Origin: a virus
Lineage: Duplodnaviria; Caudoviricetes
Virus record (IMG/VR): IMGVR_UViG_3300029288_000100
Coordinates: 46,099 to 110,098 of that record
DNA length: 64,000 nt
Reading direction: 5' to 3' (one strand)
Below, piece by piece: positions 5,277-61,033 of the stretch (position 1 is its first letter; each line of letters begins with the position of its first letter). The position numbers and the translations under genes are program-made. The notes below the pieces were generated by a model. It had not been told where the DNA came from, searched no databases, and saw nothing but the letters and a program-made list of their open reading frames with translations.

Positions 5277-8200
5277 TTAGCGCGGGACCTCGGGTCCCAC
5301 GCGCACGAAGTCCATGGGGTTGGGGTCGACCTGCACATAGCGGCAGGTCAGGGTCTGCCCCGCGGCGCACGCTAGCCCGACGTGTCCTGCAGCGGGTACC
5401 CCCGCGACGTCGGCTGCGAGCAGCTGGCGGCCGTCAAGCAGCGCCCTCGCTCGCGTGGACCCTGCAATCTGGATCACCTCGAGCGAGAGCACTGACTCCA
5501 CCTCCAGCCGCGGTGCTGGGAGGACGACGCTCACTTCGACTGTCCGCACGCCGGCCGCGACCTTCTCGAGGGAGAGCGTTGCCGCCGACGCACCCGAGGG
5601 CGTCAGGCGGGCGGCGAGGAGGTTGCTCTCGTCCTGCACGCGCCCGCGAACCTCCCACCAGTGGTTCAGGACCAGGCTCTCTGGGGTCAGGCGCGCAGAG
5701 ACAGCGACGTCCGCCCAGAGGTGGTCTCCAGGTTCGTCGCACTCCGCCGCGGCCGCGCCCGACATCGTCAGCGTGCCCGCTTCGCGGTCCTGCACCACCG
5801 TGCCGGAGACCGCAACCCAGGTCTCTGCCCTCCGCCAGGTCTCGATGAGCAGCGGGAAGCGCAGGTAGATTCGTTCGTTCACCCGGCGCATCACCCCGCA
5901 GATCTCAGCGACGAGCTCGCGGTCGAGCGTTCTGTCCGGGTCGGGAACAAGAACGTCGATCAAGTACTCGTCAGGGTCCAGCCCCACATGGTAGCTGCTC
6001 GGCAAGCCGGACGGTGCCGCGAGTCCGAAGTAATCGGTCAGACAGAAGTACTTCTCAGCGACGGCGTCCCAGTGGGCAAAGCTCTCTCGCGTCAGGCGCG
6101 CCTCCAGGGAGCGCACACGCACCGGGCGGTCTACACCCGGTGTCGTCCCGAGGAGGGAGGTCAGCTCAAAGCGGAGTCGGTCCGTCAGGACCTGTGCGAC
6201 TACGTCAGGTGGTGCGGAGACGCGCGAGACGGGTGCGCGAGGGAGCCACGCACTCGCCCCCGGCGTCACTGGCAAGCCGAGCTCGACCTCTCCCTCGATC
6301 CCACGCCACCGGAACCACGGCAGCACGAGCACCTGACGTCCGAGGAATGCGCGCAAGGTGCGTTGCAGTCCGGCGTCCGTGCCGCGGGTTCTCCAAGCAC
6401 GGACAGCCAGCTTAGCGAGCGCACGGAGTTTGTCGGCGGTCAGGCGGCCCACGATCTGACTCATCGCCGTGTCGAGGCCGAGCACTGGCACGAGGTGCCG
6501 GAGCGCCTGGTCTGGGGTGAGGTCGAGGTCCTGGAGCTCGAGCAACCGGGCCGCGTTGACGTAGATCTGCTCATACTCCGCCTGTGGACCGGTGAGCCAG
6601 CGTCGGAGGAGTCCTCCCCCATCTTCTGTCTGGTCAGCGTCACGGATGCTCTGGATGAGGTACGAGTAGATGTCCTTTTCCCATGTCCCGGGGGAGATGA
6701 ACTTGATGGTGCTCGCCGCGAGGACAGTGCCCGCGAGATCAGTGATACTCATGTGTCCTCCATCGGTGAGAACCCGGAACTGGAAGGTGTTCGAGAGGAC
6801 GTTCGGTGGTTCCGCGTTGTCTTCCGCGTAGCACTCGACGGTGATGTATTTCCCTTTCGGGTAGGCCGCGTCCGGCGTGACTATGTAGCGCTTTCCATTC
6901 GGGACGTCGAAGATGAGTACGGTAAACCCCGTCTGAGCTGCACCGTTCAGGACCGCGTAGGTGCCATTCAGGGCAAGGTCGACACTGCTCAGCTTCAGGC
7001 CGGAGTCCGGATCTTGGATGTCCACCACGACGGTTGGGCGCTGAGGGTTCCCGCTCGAGTCAATTACGGGGGAGATCACGGTCAGAACAGGAGCAGTCAA
7101 GTCGAGGGACGCCGGTGGAAGCTCCGCCAGCACCTGGAACGGAACCACCGAGGACAAGATGGGAGCGACTCCAGCGATACCGTTCCGCCACTGAACGGTC
7201 AGGGTACGTGCCCCCGCTGTCAGGGCCGCAGGGAAGGAGACAGTTCGATAGTCAAACTTCCCAGTGCCAGACGCACCCTCGACGAACCCGCGCACCTCAT
7301 CCTGGAGAACGATTTCTTCTGGAGTACCCTGGTCGACGAGCAGTCGAAAGACCGCCGAGGAGGAGTTGCGTGCCAATCCACAGACCAGCTTCAGGATGTG
7401 GTCACCACTGATGCTGAGGTTAAACGGTACACTTGTGAGCGAGGCGTGGATATCGTGGTAGGCCAGATCGGCAGGTCCCACCGGGACTGCTGGGTATGCC
7501 TGGATTATCTCCTGCGCATCAGGGGTCCGTCTGGCGATCAGCTGAACCCAGTTATAGCTGTCCATGACCACACTGGACGTCCCACCGTTCGACTTCCACT
7601 GGAGCGTAGCAGTGTGTGCGCCAGAGCTCAGGTTGGCGAACGCGAAGGAAGTCACATACGACATCGATGGTCCATGCCCGGACGACCACCAATAGCTGAA
7701 GCACTGGAAGAGATCGTCGTCCTCGATGACAGTCTCACCAGGGAGTCCGCGGTCGAGCACGATCCTGTACGTCCAGTAGGCACTTGATTCGATACTGACG
7801 TACCCGGAGGTCATCAGCTGAAGCTCGTAGCGGTCCCCACGTGTCACCGTGAATGGGACCTCAGTCAGTGCCGGGTCGATGTCCTCCCAGTCAACGGTAC
7901 CCAAGGACTGGGTGCCTGGAATCGCGTCCAGCATGGTGATTCGATCTGATAGGTAGCTCAGGAGCTGCCCGGTCACTGTGAAGGAGCTGGTCGTCCAGAC
8001 CGCGATCGTTTTCAGTGAACGATCCCACTGAAGCGTGCAGGTGTGCCCCCCCGCCGTCAGTGTAAGAGCGAATGAGACAGTCTTGTTGCATCGGTTGGTG
8101 CAGCCGAGGGGGACGTAGAACTGCGTCCGCCCGTCCCCTCCGAGGGTCTGTTCTCCGGGAAGTCCCCTGTCGACGATGATCTTGACGTTCCCCACCGCGG

Positions 8201-12348: not shown

Positions 12349-13538
12349 GCCTCTGCCTCCTCAAGGGTGGTCCCGGTCAGGTTCACCAGGGACCCGACGA
12401 CCGACCCGAGGACCACCTTTCGCACCTTGAAGCGTAGGGCGTAGCCGCGGGTGACGTCATGCTCCACCTCGGTGAACTGCCAGTTGCCAGACAGCCGGGG
12501 TCCGATCCCGGCGATCTCATGCACGTGCCCCTGTCGAACGTCCGGGGTGCCGAGGGCCTCGCCATCGCCCCAGGCGAACTCACGTTCGTGCTGCGCGAAC
12601 CAGGCCGCGGCGAAGCGCTTGGCGGCCCCCGGCGAGGCGAACGGCCGCGGCGCCATCACGACCTCGCGCTGCCCGAAGACCGTGAGCGCAACGGTCGGAC
12701 CGTTCTTGACGGGTTCGCGCAGCTTGTCCCGCCCGACGGCCGCCGCGAACCGCGTCTTCTCCGCGGTCTTCTTGTGGACCTCGGTGGAGACACGGTAGGT
12801 CTTCCCGGTCTTCGGGTCAGTGTAGGCGAGCTCCACCTTGGTCGCCTGTGAGGGGAAGTCGAAGCGCGGGGAGAAAGAGAACAGCGTGGCGTCCGGTCCC
12901 CCGTAGGTGAAGCATCGCTTCGTGGGCTGGTCCTCGACGTCTGGTGGACCGAAGTATCCGAGCGGGGCGCCCAGCTCCAGGTTGTGGCGCACCGACACCA
13001 CCCAGCCGTGCAGCTGCGCGAGCTGCTTGAGGAAGTCCCACCGCGTCTGGCCCCGCTTCTTCACGCGGGTGACGACGTCCTTGGTGTGGACGATGAAGGG
13101 CATGATGCCCTCCTCGCGGAAGAGCTTCGCGGCGATCTCCGAGTCGCGGAGCTGCCGGAATACCCGGCCGCGGTCACGCTTCTTGACGTCGGGGTCCATG
13201 AGGATGCGAGCTGCCCCGAACGCCTCTACAGTCATCGTCGGCATGCCCGACCGCGGGAAGTTGGGGTTCGGCGCGACAATGGTCCCGCGGTCCATGAAGG
13301 TGAGCGGCCTCCCGGCGTAGCCCAGCCAGAGGTCTACCTTGTTGCCCTCGGCGAATACCCGTTCGTCGAGGAAGCGAAAGCGCTCGTTCAGAACCGTGAG
13401 GATGATGCGGCTGGGGTCATCCTCGGCCTCACGGAAGCGGACGCCGCCGATGAACTTGGTCACGTCCCCACGGAGCTTGGTCCCTTCGACGGACACGAGG
13501 TAGCGCGGGGCGAGGAACTGGCCGAGCTCGGCGCTCAC
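12345..13538 (-). CDS. Late control gene D / baseplate hub
   Basis: EGNKVDLWLGY, DSEIAAKL, TRWDFLKQLA, GIGPRLSGNWQFTEVEH. Confidence 0.9.
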   Translation of the reverse strand: MSAELGQFLAPRYLVSVEGTKLRGDVTKFIGGVRFREAEDDPSRIILTVLNERFRFLDERVFAEGNKVDLWLGYAGRPLTFMDRGTIVAPNPNFPRSGMPTMTVEAFGAARILMDPDVKKRDRGRVFRQLRDSEIAAKLFREEGIMPFIVHTKDVVTRVKKRGQTRWDFLKQLAQLHGWVVSVRHNLELGAPLGYFGPPDVEDQPTKRCFTYGGPDATLFSFSPRFDFPSQATKVELAYTDPKTGKTYRVSTEVHKKTAEKTRFAAAVGRDKLREPVKNGPTVALTVFGQREVVMAPRPFASPGAAKRFAAAWFAQHEREFAWGDGEALGTPDVRQGHVHEIAGIGPRLSGNWQFTEVEHDVTRGYALRFKVRKVVLGSVVGSLVNLTGTTLEEAEA

Positions 13539-14338
13539 ATGCCCTCCTCGCCGGGCAACTCGACAGAGAAGCGGTCCCCACCGCGCTCCTCGATGATCTC
13601 GCGCCGCCGCTGCTCGGCCGCTTCGTACCCCGGTCCGGTCCGAAAGGCGTGGAACCTCGGCTGCATCGGCTGCCGGCGAAGGAAGTCCTCCGGGATCACG
13701 TGCACGCCGTCCCCCCTGCGCAGGTCGGCGAGCGGCATCGACGGGTCGCCGCGTGGGTTGAGCTGCCGGAGCAGGACCCCAAGCTGTGCGTCCCCGTACT
13801 CATCGAGGGCGATCGACTCGTAGGTGTCGCCACGCTTCGCCCGGCGGACCCGGGTGTGGTGCTCGGGAACACTTGGGTCAGTGGCCTCCCAGCTCACCTC
13901 CTCATAGCGGATCAGCGTGATCGTGAGCGAGACCCCGCGCAGCGACCCGTCCGGCCGGATCTCGTCGTAGCTCACGCCCCCAATGCTTTTCACCAGGCAG
14001 TCCATGGTGAGCGTCGCGGAGGCGCCCCAGGCGAAGGCGCAGACCGGCGGGCGCTCGAGCTCCGTGCTGCAACGCACCAGGTTCTCGAGGGCGACGAGGC
14101 GGTCCTCGACCGAGAAGTCCTCGGCGTCCTGCGCCCACAGGCGCACGCGGAAGGAGACTTCCTCGGCCTCCCCGCGGAGCCACTGGACCACCGGGTGGTC
14201 GCGCCCGACGCTCCCCTCGACGGCGAGCTCCGCGGATACCCCGCGGGACACGTCCTCGGGGGCGAACTGCCCGACCACGTCCACCTTGTGGTCGAGGTCC
14301 ATGAGGATCCAGAGCAGCGGGTTCGTGTTGACCGCCAT
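13535..14338 (-). CDS. Tube initiator with LysM domain (gpU/X-like)
   Basis: RPPVCAFAWG, PDGS.R; C-terminal GDTYESIALDEYGD LysM motif. Confidence 0.85.
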   Translation of the reverse strand: MAVNTNPLLWILMDLDHKVDVVGQFAPEDVSRGVSAELAVEGSVGRDHPVVQWLRGEAEEVSFRVRLWAQDAEDFSVEDRLVALENLVRCSTELERPPVCAFAWGASATLTMDCLVKSIGGVSYDEIRPDGSLRGVSLTITLIRYEEVSWEATDPSVPEHHTRVRRAKRGDTYESIALDEYGDAQLGVLLRQLNPRGDPSMPLADLRRGDGVHVIPEDFLRRQPMQPRFHAFRTGPGYEAAEQRRREIIEERGGDRFSVELPGEEGM

Positions 14339-14339
14339 C

Positions 14340-16997
14340 TCAGTCCACCCCCGGGAGGAAGCCGCGACGCAGGCGCGTGCGCTGTTGCGGTGAGAGGTTC
14401 GCCCCGTTTCGCGTCATCTCGTCGAGCTGGTGCTGCCCGACGACCTCCGCGATCACCCGCCCGTCGAGGTGGATTTGGTTCACCAGCGTGATGGCTTGGC
14501 TCGAGCCGCTACCCCCACCGCCGCGCGGGGTCGCGCTCGAGATCACATCCGGAACGAACCCACCTCGGGTTTGCGTCGTCAGGGCGTGTGCGAGCTCTTT
14601 GCGGGAGAGCACTACATCGCCGGCGCTCACCCCGAGGTAGCCGCTGGTCAGCACCATGGCGTCGCGCGCGACGCGCGGTGCCCGCTCCGAGACGCTCCCG
14701 CCCGTCTTGGACGCCGCGTGAGCGGCAACTTTCTGCATCATCGCGAAGAAGAGGTCCTTCGTGGCTATTTCGGCGGTGTGCATGGGGTTGAGCTTCGCCG
14801 AGTCACTCGTGAGCGCGCCGAGGTCTTTGGTTGGGCCGGTGAGCCGCGACATGTTGTATGCCTTCGTGGCCTCACCTGGCGTCAGCCCGAGCGATCCGAC
14901 GAACGCCTTGATCCGGGTGTTCGCTTCCTCCTGCGTCTTGGAGACCTTGGCGAACTCGGGCCCCACGTCCGCGAGCACCGCACGGAGCTTCTCAGAGGCG
15001 ACGTAGGACTCCGACCGCCCCGTGAAGCCCCCGCCCTTCTCCGCTGCGCTGACCGCGCCGAGATGGGTGGACACAGGCGCGGCGAAGCCCTTGCCACCTA
15101 GCGTCTGCTCGAGCGTGGTGCTGACGTCACCGCTCTTGAAGTAGCGGACCAGCTCGACGAGCTCACGCATCTTCTCGACCAGGAACCCGATGACCTTGAG
15201 CAGATCACCCAGCGCCCCCCCGACTGTCTTCCCGAACTCCTTCCACGCCTCGCTCGTGCTCTGGACGTTGAACATCTCCTTGAAGAGGAGCCCGAGCTCG
15301 TTCTTAAGCCCCATGAGGCTCATCTTCAGTGCCTGCCAGGCGCCTGACTCTTGGATGCCTTGCCAGACTCCCGCGAAGACGCTGCGGAAGTCGACGAACA
15401 GCGAGGTGAGGAGCAGCACCGCGCCGATCGGCCCCCCGAGGAGGAATGGCAGGCGGAGGAGGGCTACGCCCAGCCCGAGGATCGTTTTCCCGAGTCCGAG
15501 GAAGACACCCACCCCGCTCTTCGCGAGCGTGACGAAGAGTCCGAACCCGGCGACGAGCGGCCCCGTCACCGCCACCAGCGCGGCCGCCGCGATACCGACC
15601 TTGGCTAGGGTGCGCTGCGTGCTGGGCGGTAGGGCGCGGAACCACTCAGCCAGGCGTCCGAACCCGCGTCCCACGGCCTCGATGATCTCGCGGATCCCAT
15701 CGAATGCGGACTTGAGCCCGCGGGCCACGTTCAGCATCGCCGGTGACAGCGTCTTCACCTGCGCCTGGAGTTCCTTGGGCATCTTGGAGATGTCGGCACC
15801 CTTGACCACCATGAGCGCGAGCGCGAGGTCCCCCATGACGCCGCTCAGCCCCTTCACGCCCCCGCGTAGCGCTGGCGCCGCCAGCTCGAACAGCTCAATG
15901 TTGACTCCCTCGAGCGCGGACCTGAGGATCTCTGCCTGCCCCTTGAGGCTGTTGAGCTGTAGGTCTGCCATCACCTTCGCGACGTTCGCGGTTGACCCGG
16001 CGAGCTCCTTCTGGGTGTTGCGGAACTCCTTCATCTCCTCGTCGGTCAGGTTGAAGGCCTGCCCGAGGGCGGTTGCCCGCACGCCGAAGATCTTGGCAGC
16101 TGTCTCAACCCGCTTGATCGGGTCCGGGATCTTGCGGATACGGTCCGCCATGAGGAGCATCGCCTCATTCAGCGGGCGGACCTTCCCAGTGCTGTCCTTG
16201 AGCACCTGGTTGATCCCCTCACGGCCCCCGAAGACTGAGAGCACCTCCTTGGTCGGCTTCGCGAGGCGCGTGAGCCCCGCGCGGAGCGCTGTTCCCGCGA
16301 GAGAACCCTTGATGCCGATGTTCGAGAGCACGCCCAGGGCGAGCGCTGTCTCCTTGAGGCTGTAGGTGAACTGCGCGGCTGCGGGCCCGCCGTACTTGAG
16401 CCCCTCCTGCAGGTCCTTCATGGAGGTCGCAGTGCGCGCCGAGACCAGCGCCAAGGTGCCGGCGACCTCGCCCGCCTCCTTCGCCGGGATCTTGAACATG
16501 CGCACGTTGGCCGCGACAATCTCCGCCGCGTCGGCGAGCTTGATCCCCTCCGCCGCGGCTGCCGCCAGCACACCGGGTGTGGCCGCCATCACGTCCTTGG
16601 TGGAGAAGCCGGCGCGGGCCAGCTCCTCCATCGCGTTTGCGGCCTGGGTCGCGGAGAACACCGTGGTGGCGCCGAGGACCTTCGCGAGCGTCCGCATCTC
16701 GGCGGTGGTCTTCCCGGTGACGTCAAGCGAGACGGCTCTCACCCGCTGGAACGCCGCCTCAAAGTTGGCCCCGTCTTTCACCATCAGGGTGAACGCGGCC
16801 GCGACCGGGATGGAGGCCAGGGCGATCCGCTGCAGGTGGCCGCTCATCTGGCGGACGGTCTTTCCGAGACCGGCAAAGCGCGCGCGGAGATCAGCGGCCC
16901 GGGCTCCAACTCGCGTCATCGCAGGTGATGCCTTGTCGACGAACGACAGGATCGCCGCGAGGCCGAACTTGCGCAGCGCGGAACCCGAGCCCGCCAC
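14340..16997 (-). CDS. Tail tape measure protein (TP901 family)
   Basis: LGATTVFSATQAANAMEELARAGF, GIKGSLAGTALR motifs; central hydrophobic segment. Confidence 0.95.
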   Translation of the reverse strand: MAGSGSALRKFGLAAILSFVDKASPAMTRVGARAADLRARFAGLGKTVRQMSGHLQRIALASIPVAAAFTLMVKDGANFEAAFQRVRAVSLDVTGKTTAEMRTLAKVLGATTVFSATQAANAMEELARAGFSTKDVMAATPGVLAAAAAEGIKLADAAEIVAANVRMFKIPAKEAGEVAGTLALVSARTATSMKDLQEGLKYGGPAAAQFTYSLKETALALGVLSNIGIKGSLAGTALRAGLTRLAKPTKEVLSVFGGREGINQVLKDSTGKVRPLNEAMLLMADRIRKIPDPIKRVETAAKIFGVRATALGQAFNLTDEEMKEFRNTQKELAGSTANVAKVMADLQLNSLKGQAEILRSALEGVNIELFELAAPALRGGVKGLSGVMGDLALALMVVKGADISKMPKELQAQVKTLSPAMLNVARGLKSAFDGIREIIEAVGRGFGRLAEWFRALPPSTQRTLAKVGIAAAALVAVTGPLVAGFGLFVTLAKSGVGVFLGLGKTILGLGVALLRLPFLLGGPIGAVLLLTSLFVDFRSVFAGVWQGIQESGAWQALKMSLMGLKNELGLLFKEMFNVQSTSEAWKEFGKTVGGALGDLLKVIGFLVEKMRELVELVRYFKSGDVSTTLEQTLGGKGFAAPVSTHLGAVSAAEKGGGFTGRSESYVASEKLRAVLADVGPEFAKVSKTQEEANTRIKAFVGSLGLTPGEATKAYNMSRLTGPTKDLGALTSDSAKLNPMHTAEIATKDLFFAMMQKVAAHAASKTGGSVSERAPRVARDAMVLTSGYLGVSAGDVVLSRKELAHALTTQTRGGFVPDVISSATPRGGGGSGSSQAITLVNQIHLDGRVIAEVVGQHQLDEMTRNGANLSPQQRTRLRRGFLPGVD

Positions 16998-45634: not shown

Positions 45635-45663
45635 ATCTTAACCGTGGTTAAGCAAAAAGTCAA
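45635..45663 (-). promoter_or_regulatory. Promoter TTGACT-N17-TAAGAT with operator CTTAACCGTGGTTAAG (45637-45652)
   Basis: Near-consensus hexamers in an AT-rich gap; near-identical copy at 46675-46703. Confidence 0.85.
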
Positions 45664-46674: not shown

Positions 46675-46703
46675 ATCTTAACCGCGGTTAAGCACAAAGT
46701 CAA
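46675..46703 (-). promoter_or_regulatory. Promoter TTGACT-N17-TAAGAT with perfect 16-bp palindrome CTTAACCGCGGTTAAG (46677-46692)
   Basis: Read directly from the sequence. Confidence 0.85.
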
Positions 46704-46742: not shown

Positions 46743-46771
46743 TTGCCTCCTATCTTAACCTGTGTTAAGCT
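46743..46771 (+). promoter_or_regulatory. Divergent promoter TTGCCT-N17-TAAGCT with operator CTTAACCTGTGTTAAG (46754-46769)
   Basis: Same operator in the same position relative to the -10 box. Confidence 0.75.
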
Positions 46772-48420: not shown

Positions 48421-49059
48421 TTACTCCCAGGCCTCAGAGAACTCCTGGTCCGCGAACGCCTCCGCGAGCCCTGACACCTGCTTCAACCGCAGCACCTCGT
48501 CCGGGTCCATCCCGAGCTCGCGCGCGATCCACACGTCGTCGTGGTTCCTCCGCGAGAGCTCCACCACGATCTCGCTCATCGCGGCCACCTGGTGCTGCCC
48601 GCGCGCCCGGTTGTGCCGGATGGTCGAAGCGATGCGGTCGCTCCGGTCCCCACGCTCGCGGTTGATGAGCGTGACCGGCAACCGGCCGTGCACCCGCTTG
48701 CGCACCACCCTGGAGTTCCGCCCGACGAGGTTGCGGTGGAACCCGTCCACCACCACGTGTTCGCCCGGGTCCTCCTCAAACGTGACGATCGGCTGTGTGT
48801 AGCCGTCTGAGACGATGCTGAGCTCGAGCAGCTTCATCTCGGGCGGGGCTACGCGGTTCGGGTTGTAGTCGTTGGCGGTCACCTGATCCGCGGGCACCCA
48901 GATTACGCAGTCCACAGGTTCAGTCGCGAACGGGCTGACCGCGTGCAGGGCGCGGCGCACCCCGTTCAACGCCTCGATCCTGGCATCGCCCTCGAGACGG
49001 GCGATCTCCGCGACCAGCTCCGCCGTCTTGCGCCTCACGGCAGCGTCGTCATGTTCCAT
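48421..49059 (-). CDS. ibrB: IbrB/YbdM-like ParB/Srx-domain protein
   Basis: EPVDCVIWVP, ANDYNPNRVAPPEMKLL, DGYTQPIV, VVDGFHR, ASTIRHNRARG, LGMDPDEVLRLKQ. Confidence 0.9.
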   Translation of the reverse strand: MEHDDAAVRRKTAELVAEIARLEGDARIEALNGVRRALHAVSPFATEPVDCVIWVPADQVTANDYNPNRVAPPEMKLLELSIVSDGYTQPIVTFEEDPGEHVVVDGFHRNLVGRNSRVVRKRVHGRLPVTLINRERGDRSDRIASTIRHNRARGQHQVAAMSEIVVELSRRNHDDVWIARELGMDPDEVLRLKQVSGLAEAFADQEFSEAWE

Positions 49060-50261
49060 TGCTCCCTCCGGCGCCGCATGAGCTCGAGGTACCGCTTGTA
49101 AGAGTCCGGGCTCTTGTGTGGCGCGAAGTGAAAGTCCTTGCACCAGTAGTCGTTGCGCAGAAGCATCTTGCACACTCGCCGCCACGTGGGAGCCGCGTGC
49201 GCCGCCTCGACCTTCCGGTCCGCCTCGTCGGGGATCTCGGTCACCCCACGGTGGTCAGCCCACCACTTGAGCCAGATCGCGATCTTGTTCTCGAAGTGCT
49301 CCCGCATCCGCGGCGGCATGCTCCCGAGGAGCTGCTGCGCGAACGACTTCCAGGTGTGTCCCTCCGGGCAGGACACCTTGATTCGCCCGAGGATGTTCCC
49401 TGCCTCGCGCGCGTACCGCGCCCCCTGGTTTGCGCCGTTCACCCGCGCGACGACGCGCGCCCACGTCTCCGGCTCGATGATGTGAAACAGCCACAGCCCC
49501 TTCCGCTGGTCGTCTCCGTAGGGCTGGCAGATCCGCTGTTGGTGGATCGATAGTCCGGCCTGGTGCATGCGATCGTAGAGCCGGTTGTACGGCCTCTTCT
49601 CCTGCCCGAAGTAGATCCAGATGTCCCGCGTTCGCCAGTCATAGATCGGGTAGGCGTTGAAGACGTTCGGCGTGATCCGCGTCGTCCACTGCAGCCCGTC
49701 CAGTGTCTCCTTCGACGTGCTCTTGACCGTGCGGTAGCGGTTCAGGCTCTCGTCTGCCCGGATGCCCACCAAACACGCGGTGCGCTCGCCCTGCGCGTAC
49801 CACTCGCCGAAGGCCGGGACGAACTCCTCGAACTCCATCCCACGTCGAAAGAACGGGAAGAACGCCTCATCCACCACGCTGCGCGGGTCCGGCTCCCGGA
49901 TCCAGTCTGCTCTGCGGTTCGGATCCCAGCACAGCCATTGCGGCTCAAACTGGCTGACCGCGTTCCGCAGCGACAGCGGCAGCGCGACCCAGAAGAGATC
50001 AACCAGGTCCCGGTAGAGGTCGCAGCACCGGCGGACGTGATCGATCGTCAGGCGGTACTGCCCCTCGAGGTCCACGATCAGGACGCCGAAGCGGCGGCCG
50101 CGCCGGCGCGCCTCATCCGCCGTCAGGTGCAGGAGCACCGACGAGTCCTTCCCACCCGAGAAGCTCACGTATATCCGCTCGAAATGGTCGAAGACCGTCG
50201 CCACCCGCCGACGCGCCGCGGTCAACACGTCGATACCCAGAGGCTTCTTGTTCCCAGTCAT
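49035..50261 (-). CDS. ibrA: IbrA/YbdN-like PAPS-reductase-family protein with DUF3440
   Basis: SFSGGKDS, GIRADESLNR, PIYDW, QRICQPYGDDQRKGL, WRRVCKMLLRNDYWC. Confidence 0.92.
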   Translation of the reverse strand: MTGNKKPLGIDVLTAARRRVATVFDHFERIYVSFSGGKDSSVLLHLTADEARRRGRRFGVLIVDLEGQYRLTIDHVRRCCDLYRDLVDLFWVALPLSLRNAVSQFEPQWLCWDPNRRADWIREPDPRSVVDEAFFPFFRRGMEFEEFVPAFGEWYAQGERTACLVGIRADESLNRYRTVKSTSKETLDGLQWTTRITPNVFNAYPIYDWRTRDIWIYFGQEKRPYNRLYDRMHQAGLSIHQQRICQPYGDDQRKGLWLFHIIEPETWARVVARVNGANQGARYAREAGNILGRIKVSCPEGHTWKSFAQQLLGSMPPRMREHFENKIAIWLKWWADHRGVTEIPDEADRKVEAAHAAPTWRRVCKMLLRNDYWCKDFHFAPHKSPDSYKRYLELMRRRREQWNMTTLP

Positions 50262-50656
50262 CGCCGCCACTCTAGGTGCGTGGTCCCGAGCTTGAAGGTC
50301 CGCCGCGGCGCGAACCCAAGCTTGAGAAATAGCCGACTGCGGAAGGCGAACACGTCCACCACGTCAGCCGCTCCACGCGCCACATCGAAGCGAACCCGCA
50401 CGAGCTCCTCCCCCAGCCCCCGACCGCGGAATTCGGGCAGGACGAAGCACCCCCCTAAGCGCGCACGGAGCGGCAACCTCCGCACGTAACCGCACGCGAC
50501 GACCCGCCGCTCGTCGAAGGCGGCGAACCACGTCACCTCCGGGTCGCTCGATGCAACGCTCTCCAGCGGCGGGAGGTCGCGCAGAGTCACCCCCTCCCGT
50601 CGCGCGGCTCGAGCGAGCGACCGAACCGCCCCAAAGCTGACTTCAGTCACGTGCAC
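50258..50656 (-). CDS. GNAT family acetyltransferase
   Basis: FVLPEFRGRGLG acetyl-CoA motif; LFLKLGF. Confidence 0.85.
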   Translation of the reverse strand: MHVTEVSFGAVRSLARAARREGVTLRDLPPLESVASSDPEVTWFAAFDERRVVACGYVRRLPLRARLGGCFVLPEFRGRGLGEELVRVRFDVARGAADVVDVFAFRSRLFLKLGFAPRRTFKLGTTHLEWRR

Positions 50657-51372
50657 CGCGGAACCTCGGGGTAGTAGCGCCGCTCCCACTGCCCACGTCC
50701 GCACCCGGTCCCGCGCTCGTCGCCGATTCCGTCGACGCGGATCCGCGCGCGGTCCCAGAACCCACCCTCGCTCATCGCGTAGGCCGGGTGCACCGGGAGG
50801 TCGTACTTGCGGAGGTAGGCGAAGACGAGCGCCGCGTCCCACCAGACGATCGGCGCGCATGAGCTCGGCGAACTGCACCCGAAGCGTCGGGCGCGCCGTC
50901 TACGGCGCCCGGACTCCCGCGCCCGCAGCCCGAGAATCCGCCGACCCAGCTCGTCGGCCTCGCGGAAGAACAGCCGACAGTCCTGCTCCCAGGTCAGGTC
51001 TCGCCACCCCACACCGGCTGGCAGGCATGTGTCCGTGACGACGATCTCCTGGTAGTCGACAGGAAACCTCCGCAGAAAAACATCCCGGACCGCGGGGCAG
51101 TCGGGGTTGTGCGAGGGGTCGTAGCGGACCCAAACGAAGGGCACCCGCAGACCCGCGCGCACCGCGAGGTGCGCGACGACGACGGAGTCCTTGCCCCAGC
51201 TCACCGCAACGAAGCACGTTCCGTCGAGCCCCGCGAAGCGTTGAAGCTCCGCGAGCGCCGCCTCCTCCCTCCGCGCAAGGTGTTCCGAACCGGCCAGCAC
51301 CTGATCAGTCTGCTCCAGGCGAGCCCAGACCTCAAGGTCGATCGCGGTGTGCCGTGGGCTCGGGATCAGCAC
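50647..51372 (-). CDS. CysH-like (PAPS reductase family) protein of the type IV-B locus
   Basis: VAVSWGKDS PP-loop, ILGLRARES, PIVWW..VFAYL..LPVHPAY; no C-terminal ECG(L/I)H catalytic motif. Confidence 0.88.
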   Translation of the reverse strand: MLIPSPRHTAIDLEVWARLEQTDQVLAGSEHLARREEAALAELQRFAGLDGTCFVAVSWGKDSVVVAHLAVRAGLRVPFVWVRYDPSHNPDCPAVRDVFLRRFPVDYQEIVVTDTCLPAGVGWRDLTWEQDCRLFFREADELGRRILGLRARESGRRRRRARRFGCSSPSSCAPIVWWDAALVFAYLRKYDLPVHPAYAMSEGGFWDRARIRVDGIGDERGTGCGRGQWERRYYPEVPRCT

Positions 51373-51623
51373 CGGTCGTGTCCCTTCAGCACCGTCAGGA
51401 TCTGTGGTGCCCCGCGGTCGTTCTCGGCCACCCGGAACCGCAGTCGACGCGGCCTCCGCCCGCGGTAGAGCCAGACGCCGGGCTCGAGCTCCTTCACCCG
51501 GCGCGCGGTCTCGGACTCGCGGATCAGCGCCGCCAGCGCCAGTTCGTAGGTGAGCTGTGGATCCACCCGCTCGACGTACCGCCGGACCGCGTGCGGCGTG
51601 ACGAACCAGCGCCCGGCGATCAC
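51366..51623 (-). CDS. Small protein with RelE/DUF4258-like RNase pattern
   Basis: VTPHAVRRYVER and C-terminal QILTVL; overlaps both neighbours. Confidence 0.6.
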   Translation of the reverse strand: MIAGRWFVTPHAVRRYVERVDPQLTYELALAALIRESETARRVKELEPGVWLYRGRRPRRLRFRVAENDRGAPQILTVLKGHDRC

Positions 51624-52261
51624 AGGAACGTCTCCGGAACAGCGCGCCAGTCGGACCCCTCCGCGCGCCAGTACGGGTGCATGATCCGGCAGAAACGGAG
51701 GTACAGCCAGTCGGGGGCCAAATCGCGCGGGAGCGGACGCGCCGGCGCCTCGTCACAGGTGAACACGGATCGGTCCTCCTCGATCTCGACCACCTCCCAT
51801 CTGGCGACCCACCCGTACCCCGACGCCCGCTTCGCCCCGAGCGCGAGCACGTGTCGAAGAAGCGCGCGAACCTCCGCGACGTCGCCAAATCCCCACCACG
51901 TCAACCGCATGCCCGCCGGCAGCGCAAGGCGCAGCGGAACCCAGAACGCCTTGTAGCGCCCGGACGTCGGGAGCTTCGCGGCGGAGGTCAGAAGCACCAG
52001 GTCACGCAGGTCGGGAAGCTTGCGCGTCCAGCGCCGGGCCTGGAACTCCTGCACGACGAGGTGCGCCTCCGAGGCGTGGTAGAAGCCCTGCAGGTGTAGC
52101 TGAAGCGGGATCGGGAGGTCCACCGCGTCGTGGTACTCAAGCTCCGGCGGTGGGAACCTGCGCAGCCCCGCAACCACCGCCGCGAGGAGCGCGTCAAGCG
52201 CAATCGGGTGGGTCGCGACCAACGCTTGCGCGAGCGTCGCCCTGACAACGAACGGAGTCAC
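51620..52261 (-). CDS. csf3: Type IV CRISPR Csf3 (Cas5-like RAMP)
   Basis: IALDALLA, PIPL..FYHAS, GRYKA, GDVAEVRALL, G-loop LGAKRASGYGWV..W. Confidence 0.85.
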   Translation of the reverse strand: MTPFVVRATLAQALVATHPIALDALLAAVVAGLRRFPPPELEYHDAVDLPIPLQLHLQGFYHASEAHLVVQEFQARRWTRKLPDLRDLVLLTSAAKLPTSGRYKAFWVPLRLALPAGMRLTWWGFGDVAEVRALLRHVLALGAKRASGYGWVARWEVVEIEEDRSVFTCDEAPARPLPRDLAPDWLYLRFCRIMHPYWRAEGSDWRAVPETFL

Positions 52262-53334
52262 CGGATCGCCGTCAGCCACGCGAGGAGGTCGGTGCGGTTC
52301 ATGACCACGTGGTCGAGGTACGGCCCCGCGAACTGCCGCGCTGTTGCCTCGATCCGAGCATCCTGATCCAGCGCGCGAAGCCCCTCGGCGAGGGAGCTCG
52401 TCTCCCCCGACGCATGGACTGCCCGCAACGCGACAGCGCCGTGCCCTGTCGCCCCCTTGGCCCCGAGCTGTCCACGCGCCCCAAGCGCGAGGAGGGCACA
52501 GACGAGGGCTGAATGTTCGAGCGGCGTCATCAGGACGCCGCCCACCTGCCAGAGCCAGCGCGCGCCGGCGCACACCGCCTCATAGGCGAAGATCATCTGG
52601 TTGCTGTCCGTGGCGCCCTCCTCCGAGGAGAGGCTCTGCTCCCACGCATCACGGTCCTCGGGGCGAAGCGCGTGCCGCGCAAGCAGTCCACGCCGAGCAT
52701 CATGGCGGGTCGCCTGCCGGCGCTCTCGGTACTCCTCGGCCGGCTGGAGGTCGCCGGCGAGCTCGGTCAGCGGAGGACAGAGCAGCCGCACCCGCCACGC
52801 GTTCTGCGCACAGAGCAGGATCGCGTACGCCACCTGGAGCTTGCCCGGGATGAGGAGCGACCCGAGCCCGCCCCCGAAGAGACCCAGGTAGGGGAAGAGC
52901 TCGAGCGCGCGGCGGTACCCGGCAACATCCAGCGTCTCCGCCTGCCGCCCGAGGGACCCACCCGAGAGCAGGAAGTGCTGGGCCGCCACCGGCAGGGAGC
53001 CGAGCTCAAGGTCCAGCGTCCGGAGCGTCAGGTGCGCCAAGGCCTCGCGGAGCGCGTGGCGGAGGGAGTTGCCCGTCAGGCAGGGCACGTCCTGCGGCAA
53101 ACCTTGCGGGTCATCCGGATCGACCACCCGCTCCGTCATGAGGAGCGCCTCATTCCCGACAGTCCCGGAGGAATGCACGATCGGGGTCAGGCTGGTGATC
53201 AGCACGTCGTAACGCACCGTCATCAGCTCGCCGTAGCGGGTCGGAGCCGCCACCGCGCCGGGCGACAGGTTCGCCAGCGTTTCGCAACCATTGGGATTCT
53301 CGGCTTCCACGTCGGCCACTCTCCTCCTCTTCAT
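52258..53334 (-). CDS. csf2: Type IV CRISPR Csf2 (Cas7-like RAMP); alternative start at 53223
   Basis: SLTPIVH, VPCLTGNSLRHALR, LLSGGSL, FPYLGLFGG..IPGKLQV, QMIFAYE, LGAKGATGHG. Confidence 0.9.
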   Translation of the reverse strand: MKRRRVADVEAENPNGCETLANLSPGAVAAPTRYGELMTVRYDVLITSLTPIVHSSGTVGNEALLMTERVVDPDDPQGLPQDVPCLTGNSLRHALREALAHLTLRTLDLELGSLPVAAQHFLLSGGSLGRQAETLDVAGYRRALELFPYLGLFGGGLGSLLIPGKLQVAYAILLCAQNAWRVRLLCPPLTELAGDLQPAEEYRERRQATRHDARRGLLARHALRPEDRDAWEQSLSSEEGATDSNQMIFAYEAVCAGARWLWQVGGVLMTPLEHSALVCALLALGARGQLGAKGATGHGAVALRAVHASGETSSLAEGLRALDQDARIEATARQFAGPYLDHVVMNRTDLLAWLTAIR

Positions 53335-53732
53335 GGAACGTCCCTCTCCTCGATCTGGCGGAAGGCGGACTTGACGGACTCCCACCGCACGCGCGCCAGC
53401 GCCGCCACGCCGCAGATCTCCTGCGGCAGGAGCTGGAGTGCCCGACGCTCGGATGTCTCCGGGTCGGGCGGCAGTGCGCGGACTGTCTTCCGCAGCGCAC
53501 CCCAAGCCGTCGTGACGGACGTCTTGGACGGCGCACCAGTCGTTGGGACCTGCAGCGCGCGCAGGACGAAGGTCAGCCAGCGCTCGAGTCGCGTGCTCTG
53601 GCGCGCCCCTGCCACCATAACGTTCGGGATCCGCTCCCACATCGTCCGGCGCTCCCCGGGGTAGGCGCGAACCAGGGCGACAGTCATCTCCGCCCATGTT
53701 GTGAGGAGTCGTTCCCGCTGTTCATCCGTCAA
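53331..53732 (-). CDS. Putative Cas11-like small subunit
   Basis: 133-aa all-helical ORF between csf1 and csf2, the Cas11 position in type IV-B loci. Confidence 0.6.
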   Translation of the reverse strand: MTDEQRERLLTTWAEMTVALVRAYPGERRTMWERIPNVMVAGARQSTRLERWLTFVLRALQVPTTGAPSKTSVTTAWGALRKTVRALPPDPETSERRALQLLPQEICGVAALARVRWESVKSAFRQIEERDVP

Positions 53733-54451
53733 GACTTCACCTCCAGGTGGAGGGCGAGCTCAAGCTCCGCCCGGCCGCGGATCACCCGGACCCGCTCCTC
53801 CAGGGGACGCCAGCGATCTAACCCGGCCTTGGCTATCCGCCGCGAATCGTACCGCCCAGTCAGGATCTCATCTTTGGTGAACCCGAGCGCGAGCAGCTCC
53901 CGGACGGGCGCCAGCGTCGTCCAGTGTGATCCATCCAGCGTCAGCGCGGCGAGCTCGGTCTCAAACACGACCAGAGCAGCCGTCTGCCTGACAACGTTCA
54001 CCGACGCGCGGGGGATCACGTGCTTGCGCCCCGAGGTCGGAACCGCCGCGAACCAAGAACTGCCCGACGGCAACTCGAGGCAGACGAGGAGCGCGGCGAG
54101 GACCTCGGCGACGTCCCGCTTCAGGAAGCGAAGCCAGGTCCACTCGGAGTCGACGCGCCGAGAGCAGACGTGCGCCTCCAGCCGCAGGCACTCCGGAGAA
54201 CCCGGTTTCCCGGACCGCACCCAGGCGCAGGGCTCGCAGACCACGGCGTTGGGTCCGCCCGGCCCGTGCCACAGATCCCAGTCGGTCGCAGAGGGCGGAA
54301 GCCAGTCTCGCCAAGGCGCGGAGCGCGGCGCCGGCAACCCGCAAATGTGGCAGGTGGGAACCGGGCCGCTGGAGGAGCTGAACCCGGGGAGCGCGGGGGA
54401 CCCGGCCAGACGGAATAGGACACGGACCGGGAAGAGGGATTTGTCCAGCAC
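53729..54451 (-). CDS. csf1: Type IV CRISPR Csf1 (Cas8-like)
   Basis: CHICG..VCEPC Zn finger, SGRKH motif, LGFTKDEI.TGRY. Confidence 0.8.
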   Translation of the reverse strand: MLDKSLFPVRVLFRLAGSPALPGFSSSSGPVPTCHICGLPAPRSAPWRDWLPPSATDWDLWHGPGGPNAVVCEPCAWVRSGKPGSPECLRLEAHVCSRRVDSEWTWLRFLKRDVAEVLAALLVCLELPSGSSWFAAVPTSGRKHVIPRASVNVVRQTAALVVFETELAALTLDGSHWTTLAPVRELLALGFTKDEILTGRYDSRRIAKAGLDRWRPLEERVRVIRGRAELELALHLEVKS

Positions 54452-54478
54452 GTGAGTAGGTATCCAGGACGAGTCACA

Positions 54479-55292
54479 CTAGCCTTTCGCAACTCTTAGA
54501 CTCTTGGGAATGTGCGCTGGCAAGCAATCCCAGAAGCTCAACCTGCCCTCTCGAGCCGATTGAAGGCTATCGTTTCGCAACCATTGCGCTCCAGGGACCT
54601 TTTTAGGGAAACCACCCCGCGGATCGGGGGCGGGTAAGGCACGGTCTGCGCACCCCCACCTACCTTGCCTACATGGCCGCACCCCCACCCCTCATGTACT
54701 ACATGGTAGGACATACACATGCCTCTGCTCGCCCCATCGCGGGCGAGTCCTCCCTGCCAGTGCGCGCCGCCCCCGGTCACCCAGGTCTGTGGAGTTCCAA
54801 GGCTTCGATGTCCGCTGTACACATGGGTTCCCTTGTGTACAGGGAAGGCTAGTGATTACTGAGGGATGACCCGGGAAGCGATGGACCCGGCAAGAGTGCG
54901 ACGCCCTCAGCACAGGGAGGTGGGCGGTCTACCTGGACGCCCAATATCATACATGTAGGACAACAAAGGTACTGCTATACCGAAATGCCCGGCGACCAAG
55001 GGGCGCGCAAGACACCCCGGGGAATAGAAGGGCAGTAAGAGCTGGCGGGAAGGAGCAGCAAGACGAAGGCAGGGGTCAGCTCAGGAATCCCAGGGAATTC
55101 AGCTTGCAGTGTGCCCTCTAACGTTTCGCAACCATTAGAGTTACAAGAACCCGAGCTTACGTCCCTGGCGGCATGCGACTGCGAGGAGATCCCATAGAGG
55201 ATATCTTCACATCGCGCCACTCGATCGATTCTCTCTTCGGGGGGCAAGCCCCCCGAACCCCCCGCCTTGCGCCAGCAATTACGAAAGGCTAG
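54479..55292. repeat. Non-coding leader with four copies of a 21-bp quasi-palindrome (fifth copy at 53274-53294) and several hairpins
   Basis: Copies at 54479-54499, 54567-54587, 55118-55138 and inverted at 55272-55292; core CGTTTCGCAACCATT exact in three places. Confidence 0.75.
55236..55257. terminator. Perfect 10-bp hairpin TTCGGGGGGC-AA-GCCCCCCGAA
   Basis: About 30 nt after the stop of the NDT-like gene; no U-tract, so terminator function is uncertain. Confidence 0.4.
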
Positions 55293-55822
55293 CGGAAGGG
55301 GTGGAGAAGCGCGAGCGGGAGCCTCCGAGAGTAGCCGCATGCAACCATCAGATTCACCTCAAGCTGTGTGCGGATCCCCTCGAGCGCCTCCCGCGTCACC
55401 GGGGCGACGTTCGTCTCCAGGGAGCGAAGCTGGGAGACAGCCTCCAAGACCCGGGCATGGAGATCGTCGTCCGTACTGGGCTGACGCTCTGTCTGGAGCC
55501 ACTCGGCGAGAGCAGCCAGTGTGGAGAACCTCGGGATCCCCAGGCGCCCAGCTTCCTCATACTCTCCTCGGGCGCCCCGGCTCTCCGTCCACCTCTCCAC
55601 GAGGAACACGGCATCGCACCGGCGCAGGAGCTCGAGCGTCGCGGCGTACCAGAAGTCCTCGTCCTGGATCCCGCTCAGGTGCTCCGTGCTCTTGTGCGGA
55701 CAGAGGGGGACAGCACCGAGCCTCGTCACCTCCGCGGAGGCTTCCTCCGCCCGCAGGACGTTCCGGTGTCGCTCCCAGTCGCTCCCGGCGGAGAACGGAC
55801 CCGCGATGTAGATGACCTTCAT
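55289..55822 (-). CDS. DUF4406/DUF1937-like (nucleoside deoxyribosyltransferase fold) protein
   Basis: VIYIAGPF, PLCPH, LLRRCDAV..W.ESRGARGE..A.RLGIP. Confidence 0.85.
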   Translation of the reverse strand: MKVIYIAGPFSAGSDWERHRNVLRAEEASAEVTRLGAVPLCPHKSTEHLSGIQDEDFWYAATLELLRRCDAVFLVERWTESRGARGEYEEAGRLGIPRFSTLAALAEWLQTERQPSTDDDLHARVLEAVSQLRSLETNVAPVTREALEGIRTQLEVNLMVACGYSRRLPLALLHPFR

Positions 55823-60262: not shown

Positions 60263-61033
60263 CTAGTCCTGCCCCAGCACCCAGCGAAGCGCGGACTTGT
60301 AGTCGTCCGAGAAACCGGCTTCACTCAGCCGCGCCTTGATCTGCTTCTTGCCTGGCGTCTTGGACTGGCCCGTTGCCGCTGCCACTGCCTTCGTCGCCAC
60401 CCGCCGGCGCCCATCCTTCTGCGCATCGGCCAACAGCGCCTCCAGCTTGTCGTTCTGCTCACCCCTCGGAAGGTTGGACAGCTTTGCCGCATCGGTCGAC
60501 GTGAGCTGCCCACGCTCGACAGCCTTGCGGACCGCCGGCGCGCACTGCAGCAGCTTCATCCACTGAGAGATGGTTTGCTTGGTCACCCCGAAGGCGATAG
60601 CTGCCTCTCCCTCTTTGCGCCCCATGGCGAGGTAGCGAGAGCACTTCTCCGCGCGGCCGAGCGGCGTGTCGTCCTGGCGGTTCTCGTTCGTCGAGATGAC
60701 CACGCCGAAGAGATCCGCGTCGGTACCGCGCCGGACAACCGCCGTGACGCGCACCGGCTCCTTGCCCTGCTCGCGCAGCCTGCGGTTGGCCTCGCGGGCG
60801 CACTTCACGCGCTGGCGACCGTCGACAACCACGGGCTGGTTCGCCTGCTTGGCGATAATGACGGGCTCGATCACGCCCTGGAACATGATGCTCAGGACCA
60901 TGGGCTCATCAAGCGGCAAGAGCACGCGCGGGTCATAGAGCGGATCATCAGGGTTCTCGATCAGAATCAGATCGGCAGGATCGAACGTCCATGCGTTGGT
61001 GCGGCTGTCAAATGCGGTCTTGGTGTCTTTCAT
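60263..61033 (-). CDS. ParB-like protein (ParB N domain plus HTH)
   Basis: GVIEPV, VVDGRQRV, NENRQD, AIAFGVTKQTISQW. Confidence 0.88.
   Translation of the reverse strand: MKDTKTAFDSRTNAWTFDPADLILIENPDDPLYDPRVLLPLDEPMVLSIMFQGVIEPVIIAKQANQPVVVDGRQRVKCAREANRRLREQGKEPVRVTAVVRRGTDADLFGVVISTNENRQDDTPLGRAEKCSRYLAMGRKEGEAAIAFGVTKQTISQWMKLLQCAPAVRKAVERGQLTSTDAAKLSNLPRGEQNDKLEALLADAQKDGRRRVATKAVAAATGQSKTPGKKQIKARLSEAGFSDDYKSALRWVLGQD

Follow-up and report, generated by a model that had tools for sequence, protein, structure and literature searches.

A locally unique 21-bp repeat around a phage-borne type IV-B-like csf operon, most likely a cis-regulatory element

What is a short repeated sequence doing at the front of a CRISPR-like operon in a phage? 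To our knowledge, neither the RNA ligand nor the function of type IV-B systems, which have no CRISPR array, has been established. The window analysed here, 64 kb that form the final part of a 110,098-bp IMG/VR virus record (IMGVR_UViG_3300029288_000100, rated complete by CheckV), carries such an operon (csf1, cas11, csf2, csf3 and further genes) on its minus strand, and five copies of a 21-bp quasi-palindrome, denoted c1 to c5, lie in csf2 and in the long non-coding leader before csf1. The solved type IV-B complex carried heterogeneous RNA of ~55-60 nt, and the sequence (handle) recognised by Csf3 was unknown to its authors (PMC7937560), so a repeat private to the front of a type IV-B-like operon is a natural candidate for the RNA ligand. 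Given that candidacy, it is useful that the evidence described below leans away from the RNA-ligand reading: the role of the motif is most likely ordinary cis-regulation of an unusual phage-borne operon. The copies and the landmarks of the leader are the following.

53274..53294, plus strand: c1, subtype B, in codons 14-21 of csf2, at +41..+61 from the csf2 ATG
54452..55288, minus strand: non-coding leader of ~838 nt, between a nucleoside deoxyribosyltransferase-like gene and csf1; GC 0.59 against 0.68 for the genome
54479..54499, plus strand: c2, subtype A, starting with CTAGCCTT; its end lies 27 nt upstream of the csf1 GTG
54567..54587, plus strand: c3, subtype B, 88 nt from c2; its left flank AAGGCTA is an inverted TAGCCTT
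54815..54842, no strand assigned: inverted repeat CTGTACACA-N10-TGTGTACAG, one of two significantly structured spots in the leader
54845..54852, minus strand: half-site c6, CTAGCCTT, adjoining the 9-bp inverted repeat
55118..55138, plus strand: c4, subtype B, the best palindrome (8-bp arms with flanks), 15 nt downstream, on the csf strand, of the -10-like hexamer TAAGCT
55236..55257, minus strand: GC-rich hairpin with a 9-bp stem and a 4-nt loop, directly after the upstream gene and without a U tract; likely the terminator of that gene
55272..55292, minus strand: c5, subtype A, inverted, with core TTTCGTAA, overlapping the TAG stop of the upstream gene

The motif is a genuine repeat, statistically solid and unique to its locality. 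All five copies reported in the initial annotation were located. The four direct copies (starting at 53274, 54479, 54567 and 55118) have the exact 9-mer TTTCGCAAC in common and were recovered by a search allowing three mismatches, with zero expected from 100 dinucleotide shuffles; this 9-mer and the 7-mer TTCGCAA occur at just these four places in the 110,098 bp, all on the plus strand, when both strands are searched. A position weight matrix (PWM) built from the four strong copies scores them at 31.6-35.7 bits, c5 at 16.7 bits and the next-best site of the genome at 9.9 bits. Random Markov genomes scored with the same PWM give a mean of 13.4 bits and a maximum of 18.6 bits, so that c5, with a score in the random-genome range, owes its credibility mainly to its position 154 nt from c4. 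The shorter elements are local as well: the 8-mer CTAGCCTT has 3 copies in the genome, all within the leader (c2, c5 and the half-site 54845-54852), and 4 of the 6 genomic copies of TAGCCTT are in the leader.

Two subtypes can be distinguished, CTAGCCTTTCG[C/T]AA in c2 and c5 versus CYANCGTTTCGCAACCATT in c1, c3 and c4. Similarity among the copies stops at 21 bp, with unlike flanks on either side, and even c2 and c3 are identical at only 17 of 21 positions. The start-to-start spacings are 1205, 88 and 551 nt, with 154 nt more to the inverted copy; this irregularity, together with a 21-nt unit as against the near-identical repeats of ~23-50 nt in CRISPR arrays, bears out the earlier judgement that this is no canonical array. 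Nor is the motif a dispersed REP-like or a CRISPR-derived repeat. Across 596 Gb of prokaryote genomes (185,579 species genomes), the 20-nt pattern has 13 single matches, about the number expected by chance, and no locus with multiple copies of the motif was found, unlike what is seen for a host CRISPR repeat; the suggestion that the motif is not a genome-wide repeat thus holds, its core being confined to this one locus in 110 kb. A 15-mer of the motif has at least 56 matches in viral contigs, all of them single. A two-copy pattern run against viral and metagenome contigs yielded, among the matches listed, unrelated sequences, and no high-GC locus with at least two good PWM matches; to judge from the listed matches, these viral and metagenome scans too do not rise above chance.

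The motif is also absent from the relatives of this operon. A search of 5.8 billion proteins returned 16 relatives of Csf2 with 50-58% identity, all metagenomic, whose contigs represent nine distinct loci (the same Csf2 is present in L061 and L062, and in L063 and L064). All nine are phage-like, with integrase, terminase, portal, RNR or primase-helicase genes. None contains the motif, the best PWM scores in same-family loci being 5-13 bits, and no analogous repeat precedes csf1 and no array lies within 8 kb. The initial annotation had made its proposal depend on conservation of the motif near other csf loci, and such conservation was not found. The single 16-bit match among the relatives is in AT-rich intergenic DNA, far from csf; the PWM matches in L060 (within a gene), L061 (in an att-like region by the integrase) and L067/L068 (AT-rich intergenic) were judged to be chance. 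The motif is likewise absent from 107 phage loci with an IbrA or deoxyribosyltransferase-like gene (1.09 Mb), in which occurrences of core 9-mers in the IbrA loci were judged to be chance, some of them falling in a conserved NDYWCK-coding stretch of ibrA.

The surroundings of the motif are as private as the motif itself. In the six loci where the csf1 region was examined, csf1 follows directly after the upstream gene or within ~200 nt of it, with no long leader. The closest relative, L071 (58% identity in Csf2, 46% in Csf1), has no leader, and its Csf2 starts where c1 ends; c1 lies within an N-terminal extension of Csf2 that is absent from the closest relatives, and the 16-codon extension that carries c1 is private to this phage, given that start of the L071 protein. 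The sites exist, are unique to the locus and are a lineage-specific addition that came along with the leader. To judge from the sequence comparisons, the motif seems to belong with the leader and the csf2 extension to a single lineage-specific package, which is not intrinsic to the Csf machine: nine loci do without the motif, six without the leader and L071 without the extension, which points to a private regulatory add-on.

Among the roles that the initial annotation had listed, namely operators, recombination sites and dispersed RNA handles, the operator option fits best, and the supply of guide RNAs, on which it had laid the emphasis, is weakened. Tentatively, then, we read the copies as operators or roadblock sites through which a DNA-binding protein controls the csf operon. 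They are short, repeated and alike in their core, and they cluster at the 5' end of the operon and are rare elsewhere, as operators would be, all of them falling within 2 kb of the 110-kb genome. The 9-bp invariant and asymmetric core, the degenerate flanks and the end of all similarity at 21 bp favour recognition by a protein, and the lack of a maintained RNA stem and the synonymous nature of the end differences of c1, both detailed below, argue in the same direction. The positions are suggestive too, c2 ending 27 nt before the csf1 start and c4 lying 15 nt after TAAGCT, a rare hexamer that resembles the phage's own -10 element and is the one promoter lead in the leader. Finally, the sites were gained in this lineage, the phage has what look like short repeated operators elsewhere, and no recombinase or replication initiator is recognisable within ~5 kb.

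We infer a mechanism of the following kind. A single sequence-specific protein, probably phage-encoded, would bind all copies, reading the invariant asymmetric core TTTCGCAAC and the weakly symmetric CTA..TAG ends. The sites flank the upstream terminator (c5, c4), precede csf1 (c3, c2) and lie in the start of csf2 (c1), and because of these positions occupied sites could repress transcription or stand in the way of RNA polymerase, perhaps with distant sites looped together, and so keep the accessory module silent until needed. If the copies are indeed an operator set, the phage holds its Csf/CysH/IbrAB module under dedicated control, and the 21-bp motif would be a clean bait with which to find the regulator and to learn under what conditions the module comes into use.

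Several observations weigh against this interpretation. No regulator candidate emerged among the neighbouring small genes in searches with Pfam, PHROGs, PDB sequences and the Atlas, and no helix-turn-helix (HTH) protein is recognisable in the operon or within ~5 kb. Between 53000 and 55700, no sigma-70-type promoter scores at least 9/12. Relative to transcription, four of the five sites are oriented alike, which a symmetric operator does not call for, and one site lies 1.2 kb downstream, inside the third gene, csf2. In addition, the entire leader folds with a z score of -3.05 on the csf strand (20 shuffles) and of -1.1 on the other strand, the former value reflecting long-range pairing, including that of c5 with c2.

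The arrangement has counterparts among well-studied regulatory systems. As in lac O1/O2/O3, gal OE/OI and lambda OL-OR, several quasi-palindromes of ~20 bp and of unequal quality surround the start of an operon, with auxiliary sites in coding sequence and others hundreds of bp apart; unlike in those systems, neither a repressor gene nor a promoter was found here, the core is asymmetric, four of the five sites point the same way and one is 1.2 kb downstream. Mycobacteriophage L5 has across its genome ~30 stoperators of 13 bp that are bound by the repressor gp71. These resemble the present sites in being asymmetric and orientation-biased and in occurring in both transcribed and intergenic DNA of a high-GC phage, and the sites here could similarly block elongation; they differ in number, length and distribution, there being only 5 sites of 21 bp within 2 kb at one accessory operon.

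The rival that survives best, though we consider it unlikely, places the signal in the transcript of the csf strand, where the motif (in RNA, GUUGCGAAAC) would serve as a handle, a nucleation site or a processing site for the Csf complex or a small RNase, with either defined RNAs (for example, the 67-nt c3-c2 interval) or autoregulated translation of csf1 and csf2 as the outcome. The four strong copies are all in the sense of the csf mRNA; the pair 5-17 is U-G in three copies and can form just in RNA of the csf strand; c2 and c1 lie at most 61 nt from the csf1 and csf2 start codons; and the csf-strand fold of the leader points the same way. An 85-aa DUF4258-like protein is encoded between csf3 and cysH, and four related loci encode Cas6-family proteins above the Pfam cut-off.

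Comparable RNA systems are known. CreA/CreR-type RNAs derive from degenerate, repeat-like sequences beside cas operons. In Fuxiviridae, a mini-array of two repeats is reported for a viral type IV-B locus (PMC10541130); as in such mini-arrays, short repeats lie immediately upstream of an array-less cas-like operon, and the 67-nt interval, which is close to the ~55-60-nt RNAs of the type IV-B complex (PMC7937560), could yield an RNA of the size found in that complex. Unlike in these systems, the 21-nt repeats are just 17/21 identical, irregularly spaced and devoid of a conserved hairpin, there is no Cas6 in the window and no counterpart in related loci, and one copy is coding.

The folding results count against an RNA-level signal. 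The consensus is a quasi-palindrome, with 70-77% of the pair cells paired versus 10-57% when the partner column is slid. When the copies are folded with 4-nt flanks on the csf strand and compared with shuffles, the z scores are -3.65 for c4, -1.9 for c5, -0.8 for c3 and about +0.4 for c1 and c2, so that only c4 clearly beats the shuffles, and the stems are neither conserved nor stable in c1-c3. The proposed stem with a GNRA tetraloop is accordingly poorly supported: two of the five copies, c2 and c5, have lost the G7-C16 pair needed to close the GCGA loop. The covariation seen earlier at the ends of the motif did not withstand scrutiny, as the observed score is reached by 165-191 of 500 shuffles; the CC..CTGG of c1 versus the CT..TTAG elsewhere amounts to synonymous, GC-rich csf2 codons, CCC (Pro) and CTG (Leu), a choice expected for a 68% GC gene, and the adjacent 4-18 pair is broken in c1. 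In 100-nt windows of the leader, significant structure is confined to the TGTACACA palindrome and the terminator hairpin, and the windows that contain the motif are unstructured. Rfam gives no match in the window at the gathering threshold, nor in 53100-55500 at an E value of 5.

The comparison of sequences leads to the same assessment. Neither the motif nor an analogous repeat is found in any related csf locus, no multi-copy locus exists in the 185,579 species genomes, and spacings of 88, 551 and 1205 nt mean that there is no array. No Cas6 homologue is present: tblastn with the relatives' Cas6-family proteins gives no match in the 110-kb genome, and blastx and tblastx of the leader for gene remnants, Cas6 included, returned only noise. 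The idea that the segments between the copies act as spacers found no support, because their longest matches in the phage itself are no better than those of random 67-mers, and blastn of the leader gives no match in phages and a lone plasmid match of 35 nt (E 0.07) at chance level. The more specific proposal that the motif is an RNA element bound by the phage-borne type IV-B-like Csf complex, via Csf3 or the DUF4258-like protein, and assembled on or cut from the leader transcript, to give a non-CRISPR 'guide' such as the 67-nt c3-c2 unit or to autoregulate csf1 and csf2, is more doubtful still. If it were true, an array-less type IV-B system would for the first time have a specific RNA ligand, and type IV-B function would be open to direct test. 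Overall, the RNA reading is disfavoured relative to cis-regulation.

Two peculiarities of the copies deserve mention in their own right. On the csf strand, c3 and c4 read ATG GTT GCG AAA CGN TAG (MVAKR-stop), the variable base being a third codon position, and c1 reads NGCET in the Csf2 frame. The MVAKR-stop reading is probably a coincidence, and a functional mini-ORF was rejected, c2 being without a start codon and c4 without a Shine-Dalgarno sequence; a mimic of an anticodon arm (loop UUGCGAA) was rejected as well, since the stem is retained in c4 alone.

Returning to DNA-level roles other than operators, the copies might mark a replication origin as its iterons, or act as parS-like sites onto which a ParB-family protein loads; the phage encodes two such proteins (a ParB-HTH protein at 60263-61033 and an IbrB-like ParB_N protein at 48421-49185). 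We regard this explanation as improbable. Like plasmid and phage iterons, which are asymmetric direct repeats of 17-22 bp with an extra inverted copy in non-coding DNA, the 21-bp copies lie for the most part as direct repeats with one inverted copy in a long non-coding region that also has a 29-nt tandem duplication and a palindrome, besides other short repeats, and DNA-metabolism genes surround the leader region. Unlike iterons, they are irregularly spaced and show no helical phasing; they have no recognisable initiator gene and no AT-rich unwinding element by their side (GC over 100 nt falls no lower than 0.51), the GC skew does not turn at the leader, and one copy sits 1.2 kb away in csf2.

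Least probable, in our estimate, is a role in recombination, with c2 and c5 as the ends of an invertible segment (an on/off switch) or of a miniature inverted-repeat transposable element (MITE)-like 814-bp insert, or with the 7-bp centres as crossover sites of a tyrosine recombinase. Lambda-type core sites have a 7-7-7 layout with an identical centre and variable arms. The present sites can be read in this way, four copies having TTCGCAA as their centre; the leader is bounded by c2 and c5, which over 14 nt make up an inverted pair (13/14; the cores differ, TTCGCAA versus TTCGTAA), an inverted pair around a non-coding segment before an operon being also the arrangement of invertible promoters and shufflon sfx sites; CTAGCCTT is found only in the leader; and the leader is missing from relatives, as expected of an insertion. 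Unlike in those systems, there is no recombinase within ~5 kb on either side (no tested gene between 43.8 and 64 kb matches recombinase families in Pfam or PHROG), and the sole integrase homologue of the phage is ~64 kb from the leader and has no motif near it, because the core occurs nowhere else in the genome. The symmetry of the arms is poor (2-5/7), no target-site duplication surrounds c2 and c5, and c3 and c4, the inner copies, are each in direct orientation, as the ends of a transposon are not. One contig from one DNA run spans 52.5-56.5 kb in a single arrangement, with no variant or joint, although contigs drop rare forms and are hence uninformative on inversion. Both the iteron and the recombination explanations are weaker because their defining partners are missing, an initiator and an AT-rich element for the former and a recombinase and both orientations for the latter. 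Other candidates were dismissed outright: positions 2-7 as a TANNNT -10 element (no -35, and the implied promoters would be antisense), a -35-like TTGCGA (no -10 at the proper distance), and LexA, DnaA or dif-like sites (no true match).

The leader itself contains no open reading frame with a coding-like GC content at third codon positions (GC3). It does contain further short repeats, namely two copies of CGCACCCCCACC that are 29 nt apart (54649-54689), GTCCTAC beside CATGTA twice (54700-54712 and 54950-54961) and, in 54815-54852, CTAGCCTT followed by the inverted repeat CTGTACACA..TGTGTACAG of 9 bp. A canonical promoter, TTGACA-N17-TAGCCT, precedes csf1 in the relative L070 (2930-2998) and is flanked by two copies of CTGTACA; CTAGCCT and CTGTACA, common to the leader and L070, could be a conserved csf promoter/operator element.

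The genes of the operon form a single tightly packed string on the minus strand, from 54451 to 48421, and are listed here with their recognisable neighbours.

48421..51372, minus strand: remainder of the operon, encoding a CysH-like PP-loop enzyme, a GNAT protein, an IbrA-like PAPS-reductase/DUF3440 protein and an IbrB-like ParB_N protein, the last (48421-49185) at the end of the operon
51366..51623, minus strand: gene for an 85-aa protein, GC3 0.90, DUF4258-like in its Atlas structure (TM 0.66)
51620..52261, minus strand: csf3 (Cas5), TIGR03116, E 7.6e-12
52258..53334, minus strand: csf2 (Cas7), TIGR03115, E 5.8e-15, below the curated cut-off
53331..53732, minus strand: cas11-like small subunit gene, with an ATGA overlap with csf2
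53729..54451, minus strand: csf1-like gene with a Zn-finger (CxxC...CxxC), named by position, 46% identical to the same-position gene in L071
55289-55822, minus strand: nucleoside 2-deoxyribosyltransferase-like gene, upstream of the csf operon and on the same strand
60263-61033: gene for the ParB-HTH protein, the nearest recognisable HTH protein, just beyond ~5 kb from the operon

The order csf1-cas11-csf2-csf3 followed by a CysH-like gene, with matches to Csf2, Csf3 and PAPS_reduct and without an array or adaptation genes, is that of a type IV-B-like operon, and there is no CRISPR array in the 110 kb. The scores of Csf2 and Csf3 are far under the NCBIfam cut-offs, and tblastn (E 1e-5) detects no relatives of Csf2 in 72,556 plasmids, 50,697 phage records or the species genomes searched above; because of this, the operon is assigned, by its sequence, to a divergent type IV-B-like clade found only in metagenomes. 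Viral contigs contain no Csf2 relatives either.

The clade shows further variation in gene content. Four relatives encode proteins of ~300 aa whose matches to Pfam CRISPR_Cas6 exceed the gathering score (26-30.5 bits), with no array within 8 kb (L061 12924-13829, L065 11489-12382, L066 5061-5960 and L070 7486-8406), so this type IV-B-like phage clade is not uniformly Cas6-less. The 85-aa gene, at a position where relatives have HTH or Y4mA_C genes, sits between csf3 and the CysH-like gene with an overlap on either side; because the Atlas structure of its product resembles DUF4258, the product may be a small protein with an RNase fold. For the neighbouring unknown genes, Atlas and PDB sequence searches were uninformative. 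In L067 and L068, a RecD2-like helicase of 780 aa is encoded after the CysH, IbrA and ParB genes (13389-15731 and 12540-14882, respectively), which recalls the type IV-D layout. In L061, five copies of AATGGCCCAA occupy positions 5939-6158, in the 256-nt gap after a tyrosine integrase gene beside the csf locus, and are likely to be arm-type att sites.

The phage is of the myovirus type, having genes for the tape measure, sheath, baseplate, portal and large terminase; its GC content is ~68%, and the minus strand carries nearly all genes. A tRNA scan of the window found none. The sole sequencing-run holder listed for the record is a landfill metagenome (one DNA run), possibly the source sample. 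Downstream of the csf operon, the palindrome CTTAAC-N4-GTTAAG occurs three times (45637-45652, 46677-46692 and 46754-46769), with no further copy in 110 kb. Two copies lie between the -35 (TTGACT) and the -10 (TAAGAT) of strong minus-strand promoters and the third overlaps a TAAGAT, such that each of the three TTGACT-N17/18-TAAGAT promoters (45.6-46.8 kb) is overlapped by the palindrome; this looks like a classical promoter/operator set of another transcription unit.

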